Assembly (NCBI GenBank): GCA_041242255.1
Contig: JBESAV010000001.1
Coordinates: 416,001 to 480,000, forward strand
Direction: 5' to 3'
Origin: Candidatus Altimarinota bacterium
GTDB lineage: Bacteria; Patescibacteriota; Gracilibacteria; UBA1369; GCA-2718715
DNA: 64,000 nt
Below, one piece after another: positions 33,405 through 43,181 of this stretch; positions within the stretch are counted from its first letter, which is position 1; every line of letters begins with the position of its first letter. The notes under the pieces are model-generated. The model was not told where the DNA came from, did no database searches, and was given only the letters and a program-made list of their open reading frames with translations. Made by a program: the position numbers and the translations under genes.

Positions 33405-35036
33405 ATGGCCAAGAAAAAAAAGCAAAAAAAGTCAAAAGTTGAACAGACAAAAAAAGCTACCCAAAAAAAGATCAATGATGCCCAAGCAAAACCAACCAAA
33501 GATGTAGATAACTCATCTGAAAAGTTCATCGACCACCTAAACACAATTTTCAGAAGTCAATTTTCCCGCGGAGTTCTATCTTTCACAATTTTACTAATAC
33601 TCGGATATTCACTTTATAGCTACACACAACACAAACTCTACCAGGGCACATTAGTCAATCTTCTTCCAGCAGATACTACCTTTGCTTTCCTTGAGGTAAA
33701 CCAAAATTTATATTTAGACCAAGTCAAAAGACTCTCTAATCACAAAAATCAAGAAGAGATAAGGCAGCTTATCGATCCTGAAACATCCCTTCTCAACCAA
33801 ACCAACATTACTCCAGTACTCAATAGAGCCCTCAAAAAAAATCTATCTATCCAGTATTCTCAAGATCAAAAAAAATACCTTTTCTTATACAAACTACTCC
33901 CAGAAGATGCAGAAAAAATAAAATTCCCAGTCAGAGTAATTCAAACCAAATCCGATCAAAAATGGTACTACTCAAAAAAAGGGGATATACTATCTATCTC
34001 AAACGACAAAACAATCAGCAAAAATCCATTCCAAGAATTACCAAAGTTCACAAACCAAAGAGCCTTCCTAGATTCTAGCCTAAATATTCCTCAACAGAAC
34101 TTAGCCTGGTTCAGCATCAACCATAGCTTCATACCTGAGCTATCCTCAGACCCACTTTTCCCTAACAATAAACTTTCTAGTCTTAAAGCAATTTCTCCAA
34201 TATTTGGATTTACTAGTGGATATTTCAATGTAAATACACAAGGTTTATTAGTTGGAACCTATACCAATCCAAACCCAAACCTTAACCTAACACTTAGCCC
34301 ATTACGACAATTGGACAAATTCCAATCAAACCTTCAGCAGTACACACCACCACTTCAGTCTTTAGACTTTATAATATCCGGGACAGAAATATCTACGATG
34401 ACTCAACACTTCACAGACAAATCTCCTGAAATTCTAATAAGCCTCCAAAACATTGCTACACGCCACAATTTATCTCCCCAAAACCAAGCTACAATCCAAG
34501 AAATTCTTCAAAATGAGTATTTAGTTTACAAACAAGAGGATTCTTATTCTTTACTCCTACCAAAGCAAAACCCAGAAACAGAAACTCAAATTCTAGATAT
34601 ATTCTCAAATCTTGAAGCTTACTATTCACCGACTATCAACTCTTACCTTCTGGAAGACAACACTCGTGCCAGAACCAAAGTTCCATCAGAGCCAGTTATT
34701 CGTGAACCAAACGAGGATCAATTACATACTTTCAACATGAAAGAGCTATCCACCCAGGTCCATGTAGACTTTTCTCATCCTCAATATATCCAGATAACCT
34801 ACAATCCTCCAACTACTCAAACAATCTCTCAACCAAAACAAACTTCAGTCGAGCCAGAAAATCCAGATTTCTTCCAGAATCTATTGCCTCAAGGTAGTAG
34901 CCATATCTACATGTCACAAGACCAAGTTTTAGAGCTAATTACTGAAGAAGACCTTAGTTTTTACCCATTTAATGTAAACTCTTCCACTTACTTTTTTGAT
35001 GATGGTATTCAAGCCTTATTCCAATTAACATGGTAA
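33405..35036 (+). CDS. membrane-anchored hypothetical protein (DUF3352-like layout)
   Basis: Basic N-terminus, one TM helix, then a LLPADTTFAFLEVN motif. Confidence 0.65.
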   Translation: MAKKKKQKKSKVEQTKKATQKKINDAQAKPTKDVDNSSEKFIDHLNTIFRSQFSRGVLSFTILLILGYSLYSYTQHKLYQGTLVNLLPADTTFAFLEVNQNLYLDQVKRLSNHKNQEEIRQLIDPETSLLNQTNITPVLNRALKKNLSIQYSQDQKKYLFLYKLLPEDAEKIKFPVRVIQTKSDQKWYYSKKGDILSISNDKTISKNPFQELPKFTNQRAFLDSSLNIPQQNLAWFSINHSFIPELSSDPLFPNNKLSSLKAISPIFGFTSGYFNVNTQGLLVGTYTNPNPNLNLTLSPLRQLDKFQSNLQQYTPPLQSLDFIISGTEISTMTQHFTDKSPEILISLQNIATRHNLSPQNQATIQEILQNEYLVYKQEDSYSLLLPKQNPETETQILDIFSNLEAYYSPTINSYLLEDNTRARTKVPSEPVIREPNEDQLHTFNMKELSTQVHVDFSHPQYIQITYNPPTTQTISQPKQTSVEPENPDFFQNLLPQGSSHIYMSQDQVLELITEEDLSFYPFNVNSSTYFFDDGIQALFQLTW

Positions 35037-36940
35037 ACCAAAACAAATTTTTCTATTTCATTGTTTCACTACTAATAGTCTTTTTTGTTTTAAATATATT
35101 CTCTTCAGCTCTAAACATATCTCAAATAACCAAACTAAATTTAAGCTCTCTAAGAGAAGCAGTTTCCTCTATATCCTCAGCCAAAGACAATACCCAAAGT
35201 TTAAATCTCGAAGAAGCCTCAAAAAATTTCACTCAAGCTAGCCAGTATTTCCAGGATTTAAAAGATTCATCGATTTACTTCGAAAACGATCTTTTATCTC
35301 CTCAAGAAATATCCCAAGCCGGACTAATATTAAGTAGGTTAGGAGAAAACTTAACCAATTCAGTAGCAAACCTAAAAGCCTTGCCAACTGAAATGTTTGA
35401 GATAAACAAGCAGGTCTTTTTAGGTGAAACACAATCCAAAAGATCCCAGTCTTTAACTACCCAAATTTCCCAAACCAAATCCACCATCGAGCTATCAATC
35501 TCTCAAGCAACTCAAGCTTCACAACTACTATCAGACCAATCCTACCAATTACTGCCTCCAAAACTTAAAAATGAATACAAGGACGCCCTACAAAAGCTAG
35601 ACCAAGTCCAAACAATCCTTCAAAGAGTAGACGCCCTTTTAGCAGGAACATTAGATTTACTAGGACATCGGACGCCACATCGTTACTTAGTACTCCTTCA
35701 AAATCAAAATGAGCTACGCCCACTCGGCGGTTTCTTAGGAAGTGTGATGTCATTCCAGGTAGATCAAGGAATCATAACTGATATTAATTTCCAAGATATA
35801 TACGACATCGATGGTCAGGCTCAAAAAACTTTAGATGTGCCACCAGAGTTCCAAGGTTTCTCTACAGAGATTTTCTCAAGAGATGCCAACTACAGCCCAA
35901 TTCCAGAGGTATCCATCCAAAAAATCCAAAACTTATTCAGCCACTCTAAGCAAACAAACTACAGATCATACATCATTCTAAATCATAATTTTCTAGCTAA
36001 GCTTCTTGAAAAAGCAGGCCCACTCTCTTTGCAAATTGACGGTAAAACCTATCAAATAACTTCAACTAATTTTTCACTTATTCTCAACACCATTGTTGAG
36101 ATCGAACAAAACAAAGATGTTGTAAACAAGATATTGGAAGATACCCAAACACACATTTTTCAAAACATATCTCAAGAAGATTTATTTCAAGTTATTTACA
36201 CATCAATTCAAGATAGAGATCTACAATTCTTTACTCTAAACCAAACCATCCAAAGCGAGATCGACAAAGCACCACTTTACAAACCAATATCCATCAACAC
36301 ACCACCCGAAACAGATTATCTTTTAGTCACAGAAACCAACATCGGGGGAAACAAGTCTGACCAATACATGCAGACAAACATTACCCACTCAACTAAGTTT
36401 TCTTCCAATCAAATCCTCAACACCATCAATCTATCCAAAACCCACACGTACTCAAATCAAACTGAAATCATCAATAATTCTATACTCCAGTCCAACAACA
36501 TACCTTCAATCCCTGATGAATTACGATTTATATTAGGAAGAGGGGACAATAAAACAATGACTAAACTGTATATCCCAGAGGGTTCAACCTTAGTAAGCTA
36601 TGAGGGTGATTTTACTAAAGATCCAGAAGTTTACCGAGACACAGATTTTCAAAAAACATATATATTATTCGAAACCCAAACAGCTCCAGGCCAAACCTCA
36701 AACGTTCAGATTACCTACAGACCAAAACTAAAAATACCTAATCAAAAAGTACAAACCTACCAGCTCCTTCTTCAAAAACCATCCGGATTTAGTTTCCAAT
36801 TCCAGAAAGAATTAGTTACTGACCAAACCATCAGGTTAAACACTCCAAACTTCCAAACCACTCAAAACCAACCCTTCAAAATCTCATCAACTACTCAAAG
36901 AATAAATCAAGATACCACATTCCAAAACTACTTCTATTGA
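35030..36940 (+). CDS. DUF4012 domain membrane protein
   Basis: YLVLLQNQNELRPLGGFLGS, DIYDIDGQ, RDANYSP, NIGGNKSD. Confidence 0.85.
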   Translation: MVNQNKFFYFIVSLLIVFFVLNIFSSALNISQITKLNLSSLREAVSSISSAKDNTQSLNLEEASKNFTQASQYFQDLKDSSIYFENDLLSPQEISQAGLILSRLGENLTNSVANLKALPTEMFEINKQVFLGETQSKRSQSLTTQISQTKSTIELSISQATQASQLLSDQSYQLLPPKLKNEYKDALQKLDQVQTILQRVDALLAGTLDLLGHRTPHRYLVLLQNQNELRPLGGFLGSVMSFQVDQGIITDINFQDIYDIDGQAQKTLDVPPEFQGFSTEIFSRDANYSPIPEVSIQKIQNLFSHSKQTNYRSYIILNHNFLAKLLEKAGPLSLQIDGKTYQITSTNFSLILNTIVEIEQNKDVVNKILEDTQTHIFQNISQEDLFQVIYTSIQDRDLQFFTLNQTIQSEIDKAPLYKPISINTPPETDYLLVTETNIGGNKSDQYMQTNITHSTKFSSNQILNTINLSKTHTYSNQTEIINNSILQSNNIPSIPDELRFILGRGDNKTMTKLYIPEGSTLVSYEGDFTKDPEVYRDTDFQKTYILFETQTAPGQTSNVQITYRPKLKIPNQKVQTYQLLLQKPSGFSFQFQKELVTDQTIRLNTPNFQTTQNQPFKISSTTQRINQDTTFQNYFY

Positions 36941-37809
36941 AATAATACATTGAAGTAACTTGTTGTATTAGCATAATGTCCAGTATATTCATAAGAATTA
37001 GTATAACCAATAATCTCTGGATCTTTTTTCATCAAGCGAGCAAGCTCAACTCCAATCAAAAGTGAAGGAGGGGAGTCTACATTATCAATTTTCAAATCTT
37101 CAACATCCATCGACATAATAGCCTCACGAGTCTCCTGATCATAAACACCCGCCTGATTTACAGTCCTGTAATGATTAAAATCAACACTGATCACAAACTT
37201 TGCTTCATCATAATATTTAGTCAGAAATTTTGCCAACTCACGACTTTCCTTGTTCCCAGCTGAAGAGGACACAGATATAGGAACTATCCTAGCTTCAGGA
37301 TTTGTCATTTTTATATAATCAGCTTGCACTCCAATAGAGTGTTCTTTTTCAAAACAACCAGGCTCCATATTCACAAACCCACTTTCAACCAATTCTTCAA
37401 CAATACTCGGCTCACTCTCTAACAATCCAAAATTAGTTTTATAATCATGGTCTCCAGTGCTGAAAACATCCTCACATTTTTCCGGATGGTCAGGTCCAAT
37501 TACAATAAAAAGATCATCTTCATCACTCAAAAATTGCTCATAAAACTCACCAACAAAATCAGCTGCCACAGGCAAATGATGCGAGGTTATACCAATTCTA
37601 CTTGTTGATTCTTCTATGCTTTCTGGCCTACTAAAACTTCTCTCTATAGCCAGCTTATATTTAGAGTTATTACTATCTATCACTAGGTTTCCAACTTCAA
37701 TACTTTGAAGTGAACTTTCCTGAAAAGGGGAGTCCACTCCAGCGTAGCCCTGGCATCCAGCCAAGGCTACTAAACTAAGAATTAAGATACTAGGTTTATA
37801 GGTTTTCAT
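36934..37809 (-). CDS. MEMO1/AmmeMemoRadiSam protein B-fold lipoprotein
   Basis: Lipobox LAGC; SHH, IGPDH, EHSIGVQ and SVDFNHY motifs. ATG overlaps the A2M stop (TAATG). Confidence 0.82.
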   Translation of the reverse strand: MKTYKPSILILSLVALAGCQGYAGVDSPFQESSLQSIEVGNLVIDSNNSKYKLAIERSFSRPESIEESTSRIGITSHHLPVAADFVGEFYEQFLSDEDDLFIVIGPDHPEKCEDVFSTGDHDYKTNFGLLESEPSIVEELVESGFVNMEPGCFEKEHSIGVQADYIKMTNPEARIVPISVSSSAGNKESRELAKFLTKYYDEAKFVISVDFNHYRTVNQAGVYDQETREAIMSMDVEDLKIDNVDSPPSLLIGVELARLMKKDPEIIGYTNSYEYTGHYANTTSYFNVLFQ

Positions 37810-40800
37810 TATCTGATAGTTATATTTCCATCTTCTCCTCTAGCCACATTATCAGCATCATACTCTTTGATTTGGGCACCTTGCACTTTAAATTCTCCAT
37901 CAGATACAACTCTAGCAAAGTAACTTATCTCACCATCATTACAGTTGTTATAACGCTCTAAAGAGTAACTAGATCGACTGAAAGTAATCACATTCCCAAC
38001 ACTCTTACCTCCATACCAATTATAACTACATGTCTCACTATTAAATTGATACCTAGTCACATTATTTATCACTGGTCTTAATCCAGAAGGTAAATAATCA
38101 ATAATCTGGTAATTCTTATATTCATCTTCATTGTAAATAGAGTCTTCAATATCTATCACAACTCGAACCAAGTCACCACTTTCAAACTGACTCGTTTCTA
38201 CTCCATCCACAAGATACCTCTTACTTATACTTAGATTTTGACTATTCCCAGCTAGGTCACCACTTTCTCTATAGCTAGCTACAAGCATTACCTCTCCATC
38301 AATACTTTCAACTTCCAGAGCCTCAGCTTGAGCTTTAGTTATCTTCTCATATCTCGAGAATCCATCACTCAAGTCAAACTCCATAACCTCATCTCCAATC
38401 CTTAAACTAACCAAAGACTCAACCAACTCAACATTTGATATAACTTTTTCCATTGCCATCACACCAGCAATACCATACACAGAACCATCACTTTCAAATA
38501 CTTCCAAAGCCTCTCCATCTACAGGCAAACCAATTCTAGCTCTCAAAAGATTATTTAACTGAGTAAACTGACCCTCTACTAAGTCACTCGAGATAGAGTT
38601 GTTATACATCGCTCTAGCACCTTCTTTATCTCCCATCTTCTCAAGCCCAAGCGCTACATATATTTCACCAAGTTTAGTATTCTCAGAGCTTCTAGCTACT
38701 TCTTTAAGTTCAGCCAAAACATTTTCTCCCAAACTTGCTAATCCATATAAGGCAATAGAGGTTCTCTCAATGTCTGCAGTCTTGTTAACCATCTGCTCTC
38801 TTAGATAACTAGAAGTCTTAGCTTTCAAAATATCATCCCCAAGAATATCAGAGACTAAAGCTGTTAATTCCAGGTCAGCATCACCATAAGTAAACAACGC
38901 CAATCCATTATTATCAGGCACATAGTAATCATTCAGATTCAAATCAATTTTTTCAGGTTCATTATTCCCAAACTGTTCACTCATCAAATCAACAATGTAG
39001 TTTCTTGTTACAATCTGATCCAACCTATTATTCACAACATAAAGTCCAGATCTCAACTCAGGTAAAAATTTACCTTTCCCAACTGTAGCTAATTCTAGAT
39101 CAACCATTCCCTCAGCAGGAACCTCTAGTCCAACTGCTCCAGTACTATCAATCAACACATCCTCAAATGCTAATCTTTGACCATATGATTCAATCACCTC
39201 AAAAGGCAATACCAATGTGTCAGCATTATCTCCCTGTCTTACAGTCAACTTAGCTTCGTGTATCCCAAGTTGAAGTTCTTCGATCTGGAAACCATAAGAA
39301 GTTTCACTACTAGTAACCTCTTCCAAAATCCCTAGCGATTCAATTTCCAAAACATAATCAATCTCATCTCCAATCACCAAGTCCTCCCCATAAGCTCTGA
39401 TCTCCATAACTGGTTTATCCTCTAGCAGGTAAGTGTCATTAATACTCGTTGCAGCAAACACAGGCAAGCTAACAGGCACTTTTATGTTATCTTGCCCAGC
39501 CAAAATTCTTTCATTTTCAAATGCCTTTGCTGAGATCCTCCATGAAGTTAAGTTATCAGGAAGATCAAAGAAAGCAGTTGCACTACCACCAGCATTTGTT
39601 TCGAAAGTATCAAACAAGCTTACATCTTTAAACTCAGATCTTTCAGCTCCACCTTTCTCAGCATTATGTACATAAATCCCATCCGCAAAGTATGTATGGG
39701 TTTTATCTACATTCAAGTTATACACTCTAGTTGCAGGCTTATTTACATATTCAATTTTTTCAATCCTAACAATCTCTCCATTTTCTCCAATCAATTCATC
39801 TCCAACCTCAGCCATCCCAGCCAATCTCCATTTTCCATTTAAGAAGATTTCATGTTCACCTGTTACTTCCAGCTCATCATTAATAATCATGTAACCATCT
39901 ACCAAATAGCTATGAACACCTTGCACAGTTACAATCTTCTTATTACCAGAATTTTCATTAGCGAAGCTCAAGACTTGGTCTCCAACTCGAACCTCCTCAA
40001 TCGGTTTACTTTCACCATTCGACATTAATACCATTGTCCCAGGTAAGAAACATCCTCCTTGCTCAGCACCAGCATCCATATTAGCCGCTTCAAGGCGTTC
40101 ATTTTTATTTGCCCCACTTTGCGGACTATCAATATTATCAATGTACAAAGTACTTAATATATCTTTCTCATACTCATAAGGTAAAACATGGAATAATGCC
40201 TCATCCACAGAAGCCAGGTTAACTTCAGCCTTTACCGGATCACCATTCACATCAGTTACTTCCATCTCAATCTCAACTCTTTCTCCAGGTCTATATCTAT
40301 CCTTGTCTGTTTGCATGTTTATGGAAAGCTCACTTTGCAATTCATCATACGAAGCAATCACTCTATTTGTATCCTCAAATCCAGTCTCAGTCAAAACAAC
40401 AGCCTGGTAAGCAAACCCAGGAATAAACTCTTCTTTAAATACTTTCGATACATTCTCCGAAGGAGTAACCTCAAAATCATCTATTGCAGTCTGGTACCCA
40501 TAGTATAAGTACTCCTCAGATTGTAGAGTCTTCTCTTCTGGAACATCCAATTCAAGCTCAAACTCTTCGCCTATTTTCAATTCAGGCTCCTGAGATCTAC
40601 TATTCAAGCTCAAAGTGATCCTTGAATCATCATAGAAACCAAAAGATCTATATCCTATATAGTTTTTAGTTTCAAAATTCACACCTCTGTCATCAGTCGA
40701 ACTTAAGATCACATAGTAAGAAGTATATAGATCTTTCTGTTGTTCAGTTGGCTCAAAGGTAAACTCAAATTCACCCTCACCATTTGTAACACCTTGCTTA

Positions 40801-43181
40801 GAGGTTAAAAAGTTTTCTCTGAACTCATACCTATATTGTTGCTGAGAAGTTTTCGAAACAGGATCATAGTAAAACCCATCTTCTATTTTTTCATAATAAG
40901 TTCCATAAATAGTTGCAGTCACACCTTTTCCAGTATCTGGATCACCGATGAACTCACTTCTGTAATAACCCCTCGAATCAGAGGTGGCATTTGCTAGGTT
41001 AACTTCATTAAGTTTTGCAGTGAGATTATATAAATCATCATCACTAGAAACATCATTTATTAATTGCATATAAACATCTTCCTCAAACACCAAAACTTCA
41101 GTCTGTGCACTTATCTCTCCTTGTTCAGGACTACCAGTTCTAAGGTAAATATTTCTAGAGTTTGGTCCATAACTAAATTCATCATCAGATCTATATGCAG
41201 TCGCACTGATAACTCCTTGTCCGTTCTCATCTAACTGCAGAGTGCTTTCTGAATTGTTGTAGTAATTTTGAGAAATATAATCACTGTACTGAACTTCTAG
41301 ATTTGGCACAGGTGTTCCATCAAAGAACTTAGCCTCAACCTCAATATCAACTGTTTCACCAGCAAACATGGAGTCTCGACTAGGAGTAGCAATCAACTGG
41401 TAAGCCGGCGTCTCAAAATCAACAATCTGCAAGCTCGAAGTAGAAATCACTTCATCATCTTTCTCTACTTGTAGTGTGTAGTAACCCGGTTCAATACCCT
41501 CAAAACTCAAAGATCCTTTAATCGTATCAAAGCTACTCACAACCGCCGTAGAAGAGGCAAGTTTATTATCATCCCAGTAACCATAGTAGTAGTAACTTCC
41601 ACCAGTCAAACTAACAGTTACTTTATCATTTTTTAGATCATCCTCTCGACCTTTAACCACTCCCCAAAAGTTTATCTCATCCGTAGGCCTATAAACATAA
41701 CGATCACTACTCAAGAAATTCCAATATCTATCAGCTTTAGGATAATAAAAACCATACCAGTTTGAATCTTCCATCATACTCAAATATGTTTCACCATTCC
41801 ATTCAACCATAAACGAACTAGGCCTATTATCTCCCATACCTTCAGATCTTTCTTTAAGGTAATCAGGCGCATTGTAATTCAATAATCCTTTCTCATTAGT
41901 TCGACCAAGGTCAGTAGTCTCACCACCTCCGATCAAACTAACATCAGCTCCATCCAAGAAAGATCCATTCTCAAAATCATACAACCATAATAACCCCGTT
42001 TCACTTGTATAAGTGTAGTAGTGGGCTAGGGGAGAAACCTGGAACCAAACAATCGACCTATCTCCATTATTACTATTTTCAATCTCAATTGCATATGTCC
42101 CAGTTTCCAGCTCATCTGCTAGATAAAGCACTCTTGAGTAATTTTGCTCAACAATCTCCGGCGAAACCTCATATAGTTTTGTAGCTTTCTCCAAACTCAA
42201 CTCATCATCAAAACTATTTTTATAAATTGAAGTCCAGTACCAGTTCCAATTCTTACTCTGACCATACTCTTCCATAAAGTCCTCAGTCGATTCGTATCTA
42301 TAAATACTTGTCGTATAATCTTCGTTAAATCCTTCTGTATCTAGCTCAGTATAACCAATACTAAAGAACTTATCTCCTCCTGGGAAAAAGCTTTCGTAAT
42401 CACTCCAGAAATTGATACCTCTTTCATTATAAGCCTCTGAAGATGTTTCAAATGTAAACACAAAGTCCTCTCCAAAGCTAGAATCTCTCTCATCAAACAA
42501 AGCTTGATCAACCGTCACAGTGTAAACTGTACCTTCTTGCATCCCAGCATGCACCAAAACTAGTTTCTCATCTTCTACTCGCACATCATAGTCCAAACTA
42601 GGCTCCACACTCACAAAACTAGCATCACCTTCAGTAACATCTTCGTTAAATTCAATCTCTATCGAAGAATCAATTGGCACATACGTCCCTCTGTTTCTTG
42701 GTAAACTAGATATCACCTGAAAGTCAGCTTCCACAGCAAAAGCCCAAGAATAATCTCTATTAGACTCTATGTTTGCCACCAAAAGCTCACCTTTAGGCAG
42801 CTCAACACTCGGAGTTAGAGTATATGAGTAGGTAGCATTACTATTTAGCTCTGCCCCCTGTGCTTTAGCTTGAGGAATCATACTCAGTATTCCACCTTGC
42901 TTCTCAACTTTAAACTCAATTTCAGGCTCAAAACTCACCAACTCTCTCACATCACTCTCAGATAATTCAACCTTACTATCCAGTGTGAAAGAAGATCCAG
43001 CTTTAGTCACAAAGTCTTCAAAAGTATCATTAGCTCTCAAGCTAAACAAAGTTTCTTCATCACTTTTATCAAAGTCATTAATCCCACTATCAAAAAGCAA
43101 ATCTCTGTACATAAAACCAACACCCACCAAAAGAATCACCAATAGGGAAGTCACTATTGGTAGAATAAATTTCTTATTCAT
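37809..43181 (-). CDS. bacterial alpha-2-macroglobulin family protein with Ig-like (Big_5) domain and internal Hint domain
   Basis: N-terminal TM; Big_5-like FQVISSLP..IEIEFNEDV; MG motifs SDRYVYRPTD, FFDGTP, TDKDRYRPGE, VNLASVDEALF; post-bait RSEF..LPDNLTSWRI; C-terminal IIDYLPSGL..YFARVV. Confidence 0.9.
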   Translation of the reverse strand: MNKKFILPIVTSLLVILLVGVGFMYRDLLFDSGINDFDKSDEETLFSLRANDTFEDFVTKAGSSFTLDSKVELSESDVRELVSFEPEIEFKVEKQGGILSMIPQAKAQGAELNSNATYSYTLTPSVELPKGELLVANIESNRDYSWAFAVEADFQVISSLPRNRGTYVPIDSSIEIEFNEDVTEGDASFVSVEPSLDYDVRVEDEKLVLVHAGMQEGTVYTVTVDQALFDERDSSFGEDFVFTFETSSEAYNERGINFWSDYESFFPGGDKFFSIGYTELDTEGFNEDYTTSIYRYESTEDFMEEYGQSKNWNWYWTSIYKNSFDDELSLEKATKLYEVSPEIVEQNYSRVLYLADELETGTYAIEIENSNNGDRSIVWFQVSPLAHYYTYTSETGLLWLYDFENGSFLDGADVSLIGGGETTDLGRTNEKGLLNYNAPDYLKERSEGMGDNRPSSFMVEWNGETYLSMMEDSNWYGFYYPKADRYWNFLSSDRYVYRPTDEINFWGVVKGREDDLKNDKVTVSLTGGSYYYYGYWDDNKLASSTAVVSSFDTIKGSLSFEGIEPGYYTLQVEKDDEVISTSSLQIVDFETPAYQLIATPSRDSMFAGETVDIEVEAKFFDGTPVPNLEVQYSDYISQNYYNNSESTLQLDENGQGVISATAYRSDDEFSYGPNSRNIYLRTGSPEQGEISAQTEVLVFEEDVYMQLINDVSSDDDLYNLTAKLNEVNLANATSDSRGYYRSEFIGDPDTGKGVTATIYGTYYEKIEDGFYYDPVSKTSQQQYRYEFRENFLTSKQGVTNGEGEFEFTFEPTEQQKDLYTSYYVILSSTDDRGVNFETKNYIGYRSFGFYDDSRITLSLNSRSQEPELKIGEEFELELDVPEEKTLQSEEYLYYGYQTAIDDFEVTPSENVSKVFKEEFIPGFAYQAVVLTETGFEDTNRVIASYDELQSELSINMQTDKDRYRPGERVEIEMEVTDVNGDPVKAEVNLASVDEALFHVLPYEYEKDILSTLYIDNIDSPQSGANKNERLEAANMDAGAEQGGCFLPGTMVLMSNGESKPIEEVRVGDQVLSFANENSGNKKIVTVQGVHSYLVDGYMIINDELEVTGEHEIFLNGKWRLAGMAEVGDELIGENGEIVRIEKIEYVNKPATRVYNLNVDKTHTYFADGIYVHNAEKGGAERSEFKDVSLFDTFETNAGGSATAFFDLPDNLTSWRISAKAFENERILAGQDNIKVPVSLPVFAATSINDTYLLEDKPVMEIRAYGEDLVIGDEIDYVLEIESLGILEEVTSSETSYGFQIEELQLGIHEAKLTVRQGDNADTLVLPFEVIESYGQRLAFEDVLIDSTGAVGLEVPAEGMVDLELATVGKGKFLPELRSGLYVVNNRLDQIVTRNYIVDLMSEQFGNNEPEKIDLNLNDYYVPDNNGLALFTYGDADLELTALVSDILGDDILKAKTSSYLREQMVNKTADIERTSIALYGLASLGENVLAELKEVARSSENTKLGEIYVALGLEKMGDKEGARAMYNNSISSDLVEGQFTQLNNLLRARIGLPVDGEALEVFESDGSVYGIAGVMAMEKVISNVELVESLVSLRIGDEVMEFDLSDGFSRYEKITKAQAEALEVESIDGEVMLVASYRESGDLAGNSQNLSISKRYLVDGVETSQFESGDLVRVVIDIEDSIYNEDEYKNYQIIDYLPSGLRPVINNVTRYQFNSETCSYNWYGGKSVGNVITFSRSSYSLERYNNCNDGEISYFARVVSDGEFKVQGAQIKEYDADNVARGEDGNITIR
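39663..40052 (-). other. Hint / bacterial intein-like (BIL) domain, aa 1044-1173 of the A2M
   Basis: CFLPGTMV (block A), VTGEHEIF (block B TxxH), VYNLNV..HTYFADGIYVHN (blocks F/G). The +1 residue is Ala, and there is no endonuclease domain. Confidence 0.93.

Follow-up and report, generated by a model that had tools for sequence, protein, structure and literature searches.

A thioester-less bacterial alpha-2-macroglobulin family with a predicted self-processing Hint domain in its bait linker

Alpha-2-macroglobulins (A2Ms) form a family defined by a bait region that is cut by a foreign protease and by a buried thioester. Here, we analyze a stretch of 64,000 nucleotides from a Candidatus Altimarinota bacterium (assembly GCA_041242255.1, contig JBESAV010000001.1, positions 416,001 to 480,000; hereafter the window), in which one minus-strand gene encodes an A2M homologue that lacks the thioester motif and carries a Hint domain within the chain (Table 1). 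The source genome is a single contig of 1.00 Mb rated 98.5% complete, and its sole match to PT-HINT and its sole match to A2M both fall in this gene at 37809-43181. Pfam matches to A2M_BRD, A2M and bMG10 exceed the model cut-offs while that to MG2 falls below, and together with a family profile they place the macroglobulin (MG) domains in canonical A2M order. The thioester domain (TED) model has no Pfam match in the protein; the family profile aligns to residues 1190-1609 of the chain of ECAM, the Escherichia coli A2M, reaching the C-terminal MG domain. The chain opens with a hydrophobic helix, preceded by hardly any cytoplasmic residues, which suggests that the protein is anchored in the membrane at its N-terminus, with its bulk extracytoplasmic.

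The Hint domain itself is complete. Pfam assigns residues 1058-1174 to PT-HINT (E 1.6e-13, 51.5 bits versus a cut-off of 27.7), and NCBIfam recognizes an intein_Cterm splicing motif at residues 1153-1173. Translation of 39663-40052 on the minus strand yields exactly 130 residues that open with Cys, contain TGEH midway and close with His-Asn; the residue after them is Ala. The original prediction, made by a model from the DNA letters, had described a complete 130-residue Hint here, and its coordinates, C1044 and N1173 proved exact. GC content of the Hint (0.364) does not differ from that of the rest of the gene (0.376). Throughout the window, each 2-kb bin shows a strongly negative GC skew (-0.15 to -0.43), GC content is 34-41% and most long open reading frames (ORFs) lie on the minus strand. 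Sequencing runs containing the stretch are marine metagenomes. The eight rows listed for window positions 38800-40800 are metagenome contigs, with no RNA runs among them, and the ESM Atlas returned only generic A2M clusters for the protein.

Table 1. Window coordinates of the A2M-Hint gene, its parts and the gene downstream
Feature	Position	Strand	Basis and remarks
Whole gene for the thioester-less A2M homologue with inserted Hint	37809..43181	-	1790-residue ORF, 201.5-kDa precursor
Putative membrane anchor, hydrophobic helix, residues 6-25	43107..43166	-	Sequence and hydropathy scan
Big_5 Ig-like domain, residues 154-246	42444..42722	-	Pfam
A2M bait-region domain (A2M_BRD), residues 864-997	40191..40592	-	Pfam; matches ECAM block in profile search
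Variable bait-like linker, residues 998-1043, ending G-A-E-x-G-G	40053..40190	-	Alignments; Gly1043 is the predicted thioester-bearing residue
Hint domain of BIL type, 130 residues, 14.5 kDa, with Cys1044, Thr1107, His1110, His1172 and Asn1173	39663..40052	-	Pfam, NCBIfam, profile searches, translation, conservation
Start of C-extein, A-E-K-G-G, residues 1174-1178; Ala1174 is +1, Lys1176 is conserved	39648..39662	-	Sequence and alignment
Pfam A2M domain, residues 1189-1243, with P-D-N-L-T-S-W motif; MG domain after the bait region	39453..39617	-	Pfam, alignment, profile
RLDQ at the CxEQ thioester position, residues 1386-1389	39015..39026	-	Alignment and translation
bMG10, C-terminal macroglobulin domain, residues 1662-1773	37863..38198	-	Pfam; family profile matches ECAM from TED through MG10
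Downstream homologue of Memo / AmmeMemoRadiSam system protein B, with lipoprotein signal	36934..37809	-	Pfam Memo, NCBIfam; Cys19 after L-A-G

Two profiles were used to locate the Hint within the A2M fold: A1, built from 57 relatives and searched against the PDB, and A2, a tighter family profile. Profile A1 matched ECAM (5a42/4ziq) over several blocks at E 1.5e-34 and Salmonella A2M (4u48) at E 3.7e-27. The block just before the Hint aligns to residues 816-882 of the 5a42 chain and the block after it to residues 936-1000. Bait residues of ECAM are reported as Arg923-Leu942 (PMC4498604), and the stretch between the Hint-flanking blocks includes them at any numbering offset from 0 to +17, the latter being the offset seen between ECAM chains in the same PDB profile table. 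With profile A2, the residue directly following the Hint falls on residue 727 of the human A2M chain. A further landmark is the chain break of complement C5. The Hint occupies profile positions of about 1011-1140 in A1 numbering, and the C5 beta-chain match (6rqj_B residues 439-609 of 655, profile 818-985) ends before it while the alpha-chain match (6rqj_A residues 108-269, profile 1168-1314) begins after it; the Hint site thus corresponds to a natural chain break in the superfamily. Judged from these alignments, the Hint site is the place where the A2M superfamily has its bait or a chain break, and the proposal that the Hint lies within the bait region is supported by the ECAM and human A2M profile blocks on either side of it.

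The thioester position was assessed by aligning 31 C-terminal halves with MAFFT (33 were picked, and two without the anchor motif were dropped). Columns reading RxDQ align under the Y-P-Y-G-C-x-E-Q of thioester A2Ms, and the next helix as well as the Gly-Gly-aromatic motif further downstream also line up. As in the original prediction, which had RLDQ at 39015-39026 in place of CxEQ, these positions translate to RLDQ, and CxEQ is absent over the full 1790 residues. The protein thereby shows the feature of type II A2Ms, a bait region without CxEQ.

The Hint-bearing A2M is a family, not a single case. A word-indexed search with region 850-1350 returned three groups of clusters: 32 more clusters in which A2M and Hint domains occur together, at identities as low as 32%; 26 clusters of comparable length that lack the Hint (P0035-P0060); and more distant A2Ms bearing CxEQ. 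An HMMER search over 1.84 billion representatives gave 460 matches at E <= 1e-30, and nearly all of the best 150 extend unbroken from one flank across the Hint into the other. Scanning a single genome for each species confirmed at least 542 relatives, of which 80 loci were kept for study, and residue conservation was counted on 145 full-length Hint-bearing representatives of clusters at 50% identity. Every kept locus (80/80) and every representative (145/145) has the Hint at the same site, which lies 30-39 residues before the P-D-N-L-T-S-W motif in 79 of the 80 loci. One apparently truncated Hint (L073) is not a case of decay, the end of this Hint being a run of unread bases.

Record labels assign 39 of the 80 loci to candidate phyla of the Patescibacteria radiation, 15 to Pseudomonadota and one each to Bacteroidota and Nanobdellota; 23 are placed at domain level only, many of them labelled 'Patescibacteria group', and one has no placement. 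The 15 Pseudomonadota-labelled loci come from third-party assemblies of uncultured organisms, and all labels were taken as recorded. The 17 loci labelled outside Patescibacteria are either mislabelled bins or transfers out of Patescibacteria (L005, L010, L011, L025, L028, L045, L046, L049, L053, L056, L060, L065, L075, L077, L078, L064 and L026, a list that includes the Bacteroidota entry and the Nanobdellota archaeon). Among 300 other genomes sampled from the phylum of the window, 19 have a match that spans both flanks and the Hint between them, and nine have a strong flank match without Hint. Thus, the Hint-A2M gene is patchy rather than universal in the phylum.

The family Hint profile finds its best PDB matches in BIL2, a bacterial intein-like (BIL) domain of the Tetrahymena BUBL1 locus (6TMM/6Y75, E 4e-20), followed by the BIL domain of Clostridium thermocellum (2LWY, E 5.8e-20). 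The best true intein, the RecA mini-intein, is far behind at E 3.9e-9. With BIL domains as top matches and Ala1174 as a non-nucleophilic +1 residue, the Hint is by sequence of the BIL / PT-HINT type proposed at the outset, and autoprocessing is predicted. BIL domains are described from variable regions of secreted bacterial proteins (PMC7765530), and, lacking the +1 nucleophile, are reported to yield predominantly N- and C-cleaved products, with some ligation (PMC7664689, PMC7765530). The +1 residue of the 145 representatives is Asp in 58, Glu in 33, Ala in 22, Gln in 18, Ser in seven, Asn in three and another residue in four, such that Asp, Glu, Ala or Gln account for 131/145; counts in the 80 loci are E28, D25, A11, Q7, S5, N3 and K1. 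A canonical class 1 intein was therefore rejected, as no Cys, Ser or Thr is selected at +1. Features of intein homing are also missing: the domain consists of the 130-residue Hint only, with no homing endonuclease, its site is a Gly-rich linker and the gene is patchy (19/300). A polymorphic toxin, in which a pretoxin Hint precedes a toxin, was rejected as well, since Pfam and profile matches show an ordinary A2M C-terminal half after the Hint and no toxin domain. One relative (P0009) carries the NCBI name 'polymorphic toxin-type HINT domain-containing protein', a name that reflects the Hint model alone.

Conservation sets the Hint apart from its host. Mean pairwise identity (60 sequences, 1770 pairs) is 44% for the Hint versus 29 and 26% for the two flanks. 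Cys1, the block-B His and the terminal His-Asn are found in 100% of the 145 representatives and the block-B Thr in 98%, which argues that the chemistries of both junctions are under selection. As far as sequence can show, the residues required for a Gly1043-Cys1044 thioester and for Asn1173 cyclization are present and under strong selection. Residues flanking the Hint are also constrained. Gly precedes Cys1 at -1 in 137/145 and at -2 in 132/145; since G-A-E-x-G-G before the insertion point is common to Hint-bearing and Hint-less proteins, it is a motif of the host. On the other side, a Lys follows the Hint at +2 in 94 representatives and at +3 in 48 (142/145 in total). The 26 Hint-less sister clusters have a Lys anywhere in the linker in only two cases, and in neither of these after the insertion point. 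Thus, the conserved +2/+3 Lys travels with the Hint. A 'scar' of precise Hint loss, which would be a Lys after Gly-Gly, was sought in the phylum of the window, where nine Hint-less loci were fetched and three lacked an open frame carrying the anchor motif; none was found in the six readable linkers. Hints of the same subfamily also occur in tandem, with 3 to 10 copies per protein (P0135, P0213, P0033, P0189 and P0236) separated by Lys-Gly, Lys-Gly-Gly or similar, forming a string of predicted self-cutting domains with exteins of two or three residues; one of these proteins (P0135) also has Tim44-like domains.

The original prediction had raised the possibility that the Hint replaces the lost thioester, and had proposed to check whether Hint presence correlates with CxEQ loss across relatives. 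The relatives do not bear such a link out. RxDQ is also present in the 26 Hint-less sister clusters, and canonical CxEQ is retained in two Hint-bearing clusters, P0034 (named Daviesbacteria) and P0232. On a maximum likelihood tree of C-terminal halves (78 rows, quick search, LG+G4), the CxEQ state changes once, with 100% support for the RxDQ clade, whereas the Hint state changes six times, at least two of these changes being forced by well-supported branches; P0034 and P0232 fall within the CxEQ clade. Hint presence is thus uncoupled from CxEQ loss, and because Hint-less RxDQ sisters and Hint-bearing CxEQ clusters both exist, the Hint is not a substitute for CxEQ.

The explanation we prefer, and hold tentatively, is that the Hint excises itself after export and that the Gly1043 acyl is passed to an amine in cis, rejoining the halves of the A2M. 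Once exported, the Hint would fold, and Cys1044, aided by Thr1107 and His1110, would turn the Gly1043-Cys1044 peptide bond into a thioester. Cyclization of Asn1173 would cut the Asn1173-Ala1174 bond and release the 14.5-kDa Hint. With a +1 residue that is not a nucleophile, the canonical intein route would be closed to the Gly1043 acyl, which would go to an amine instead. The favored acceptor would be the side chain of Lys1176 in cis, giving an isopeptide-stitched A2M with a two-residue stub; the alternative would be the freed alpha-amine of Ala1174. With either acceptor, the 118.8-kDa and 68.1-kDa halves would be rejoined and the bait tethered as in the Hint-less sisters, making the Hint a self-removing passenger or a maturation step of the bait linker, not a CxEQ substitute.

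Transfer to Lys1176 is what we infer from the sequence and by analogy: the Lys travels with the Hint, Gly-Gly occupies -2/-1 and BIL2 offers a precedent. The authors of BIL2 report that it links the C-terminal end of its N-extein to a Lys epsilon-amine by an isopeptide, whereby a ubiquitin-like domain is conjugated without ATP, with Lys residues of ubl5 and of a Ras GTPase among the acceptors (PMC8616854). By the same analogy, the Hint might act as a built-in, single-use and ATP-free transpeptidase that passes the Gly-Gly thioester of the 119-kDa N-half to a lysine side chain, whether in cis (Lys1176) or in trans; we regard this broader formulation as doubtful. As to which of the two it would be, the invariant terminal Asn and the conserved Lys after the Hint point to cis transfer rather than to capture of foreign proteins. 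Function of the host argues for re-ligation, as does the unbroken Gly-rich linker that Hint-less sisters keep at the Hint site. Cutting the bait segment of an A2M untethers the bait and triggers a conformational change (PMC4498604; PMC9181621), such that a Hint that left the chain cut would fire every molecule.

Several points weigh against re-ligation, and in particular against the role given to Lys1176. Lys directly follows His-Asn in the tandem-Hint proteins of the same Hint subfamily, and the +2/+3 Lys could be an inherited feature of the Hint module, or serve Asn cyclization, instead of being an acceptor. The isopeptide precedent rests on a short account by BIL2's own authors (PMC8616854). 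The predominance of cleavage over ligation in published assays of BIL domains (PMC7664689) favors a rival, already raised in the original prediction, in which the Hint cuts the bait itself: the thioester would be hydrolyzed and Asn cyclization would cut the other side, leaving an anchored 118.8-kDa N-half and a 68.1-kDa C-half held together non-covalently, either constitutively 'fired' or primed without a protease. Such a two-chain product could still function, as fragments of bait-cleaved MagD, an A2M of Pseudomonas aeruginosa, are reported to stay associated without a covalent link (PMC5764988), and the position of the C5 chain break is in keeping with it. It is set against an intact, short Gly-rich linker at the Hint site of Hint-less sisters; moreover, a single cut would be enough, yet both junctions are invariant in the 145 representatives, and the Hint-linked Lys and the Gly-Gly at -2/-1 would be left without explanation. 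Permanent cleavage into two chains seems to us rather unlikely. A third outcome for the Gly1043 thioester, the alternative offered in the original prediction, is attack by a Lys of another protein, be it a protease, a host surface protein or a Memo-like partner, which would couple the N-half to it. Conjugation of the BIL2 N-extein to Lys of other proteins without ATP (PMC8616854), the Gly-Gly end of the N-extein and the lack of a CxEQ thioester in the clade are all compatible with such a warhead. Arguing the other way, Hint presence and CxEQ loss are uncoupled (26 Hint-less RxDQ and two Hint-bearing CxEQ clusters), attack by an external nucleophile does not need the terminal Asn that is 100% conserved, the part coupled would be the membrane-anchored half rather than the free one, and no candidate acceptor is known. 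We consider coupling in trans improbable.

A different kind of rival concerns the role of the Hint rather than its chemistry, and overlaps with self-excision and re-ligation: the Hint may be a selfish, mini-intein-like element that has spread among A2M genes at one site and removes itself, with no benefit to the host. On the host tree of 78 rows, forms with the Hint are intermixed with forms lacking it, at a cost of 6 changes. The Hints carried by the two CxEQ-type hosts are 42-43% identical to those of RxDQ hosts, which share 44% among themselves, while the corresponding values for the hosts are 17% versus 29%. Hint and host distances correlate at a Spearman coefficient of only 0.32 versus 0.71 between the two host halves, and A2M Hints group together against other Hints (SH-like approximate likelihood ratio test, SH-aLRT, 90, not starred). 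Countering these signs of mobility, the 130-residue Hint has no homing endonuclease, the insertion site is a flexible linker and not a conserved active site, and no decayed Hint was found among the 145 representatives and 79 readable loci; in addition, the Hint tree, with 129 columns, is poorly resolved, and the weak Hint-host correlation may reflect the short length of the Hint. A purely selfish passenger is somewhat unlikely in our estimation. Least probable is an inactive structural insert that enlarges or decorates the bait loop without processing. Termini of the Hint fold lie close together, such that insertion need not disturb the host loop, but the catalytic residues are invariant or nearly so in 145 representatives whose hosts share about 26-29% identity.

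Immediately downstream, a Memo-like gene at 36934-37809 on the minus strand overlaps the A2M stop by one base and matches AmmeMemoRadiSam system protein B at E 3e-24 (NCBIfam). A homologue encoded on the same strand directly follows the A2M gene in 51 of the 80 loci, six of the 29 misses having fewer than 300 bases there, and in five of the six Hint-less loci that have downstream DNA (L083-L089 range). The neighbors of the A2M in the window are this Memo-like gene and a MiaB-like radical SAM gene; neither a PBP1c gene nor a mag operon stands next to the A2M among the flanking genes of the window. Two plus-strand genes, at 33405-35036 (543 residues, no Pfam or NCBIfam family) and 35030-36940 (636 residues, DUF4012 only), converge on the A2M/Memo pair, and neither recurs beside the A2M in the 80 loci.

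Across the 80 loci, the only recurring neighbors are the Memo-like gene and a gene for an extracytoplasmic function (ECF) sigma factor. The latter lies directly upstream in 34/80 loci by clustering or, by adjacency, in 29 of the 71 loci whose 5' end is intact, and also in six of nine Hint-less loci; Pfam confirmed four examples. Sigma-linked loci include L002, L006, L008, L023, L042, L059, L074 and L081, and on the Hint-less side the range L083-L088 and L091. The sigma stop touches or overlaps the A2M start, and all 29 sigma-linked A2Ms have 34-90 residues before the membrane helix, versus fewer than 30 in most others. Sigma-linked relatives are thus laid out, to judge from gene order and sequence, like an anti-sigma factor whose ectodomain is an A2M, and for them an anti-sigma role is a candidate only. 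No anti-sigma domain was recognized: three N-terminal segments had no Pfam match, and hhalign against the FecR-type partner encoded in the source genome gave a probability of 0.8%. The gene of the window has no sigma gene upstream, and its helix starts at residue 6 with no cytoplasmic segment. Far from the window, at 947500-952500 (L092), the genome encodes its only short ECF-type sigma factor (191 residues), followed by a 610-residue membrane protein with FecR and DUF5667 domains; this is a conventional sigma/anti-sigma pair. Self-cleavage of anti-sigma ectodomains is an established signaling step, as described for such systems (PMC10328401; PMC12036975, PMC9249621), which makes the sigma link in sigma-linked relatives worth testing. 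The likeness to the RsgI and FecR/FoxR anti-sigma factors is that about one-third of A2M relatives follow an ECF sigma gene and have a cytoplasmic N-terminus of 34-90 residues. RsgI and FecR/FoxR are cleaved at Asn-Pro or Gly-Thr near the membrane, whereas the A2M Hint is about 1000 residues away.

Among described A2Ms, the closest in character is MagD (type II, thioester-less), likewise a large multi-MG protein with a bait region, no CxEQ and association with the cytoplasmic membrane (PMC5764988). MagD belongs to a six-gene mag operon and its bait is described as cut by proteases (PMC5764988), whereas the protein studied here has a Memo-like neighbor and a Hint in the bait linker. ECAM (YfhM) and Salmonella A2M (type I) share with it the order of MG domains, BRD, TED-like region and MG10, but carry CxEQ and are paired with PBP1c (PMC5764988), where our protein has RLDQ, no adjacent PBP1c and an inserted Hint. 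Pairing with a Memo-like lipoprotein is, going by the account of PMC5764988, a context unlike the PBP1c and mag-operon settings of the two described types of bacterial A2M. The chain break of C5 at the same fold position also invites comparison with C3, C4 and C5. Complement chains are processed by a host protease, the site being followed by an anaphylatoxin domain, whereas processing by the A2M Hint would be autocatalytic. Among Hint domains, the C. thermocellum BIL / PT-HINT domain (2LWY) shares Cys1, block-B TxxH, terminal His-Asn and a non-nucleophilic +1. No A2M appears among the BIL / PT-HINT hosts described in the papers searched; here, the domain occupies one fixed site in one family, flanked by Gly-Gly and Lys. 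BIL2 of Tetrahymena thermophila BUBL1, the top PDB match and a zinc-dependent domain, also has an N-extein ending in Gly-Gly, but is eukaryotic, cytosolic and set among ubiquitin-like exteins, while activity of the A2M Hint is predicted from sequence.

The original prediction knew of no description of this architecture, and we likewise found none in open-access papers and bioRxiv, supplements aside. Two Patescibacteria papers contain 'macroglobulin' in one reference-list entry and neither 'Hint' nor 'intein', although their supplements may list such architectures. Thioester-less bacterial A2Ms and BIL / PT-HINT domains are each known, and automatic annotation already flags the Hint in P0009; the combination, for which we found no paper, appears new.

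The RxDQ clade has lost the thioester of its family, yet its bait linker holds a domain predicted to form a thioester and to cut peptide bonds itself. Lysine-isopeptide chemistry, if true, would raise the novelty beyond a combination of known parts. Rejoining through a lysine would make the Hint the first example of BIL2-type isopeptide splicing in bacteria and would reveal a natural ligation module, flanked by Gly-Gly on the N-terminal side of the Hint and by x-Lys or x-Glu-Lys on its C-terminal side; with Lys1176 as the acceptor in cis, the product would be a naturally isopeptide-stitched, branched A2M. Transfer in trans would instead provide the macroglobulin superfamily with a second, non-CxEQ route of covalent capture, within the bait region, and a chain left cut would mirror, by autocatalysis, the way in which complement proteins mature into two chains. 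The A2M-Hint family is among the largest surface proteins of the genome-reduced Patescibacteria, with a gene of 5.4 kb in a 1.0-Mb genome, and the Memo-like lipoprotein paired with it, together with the ECF sigma factor that accompanies many members, suggests an unstudied module for sensing at the envelope.

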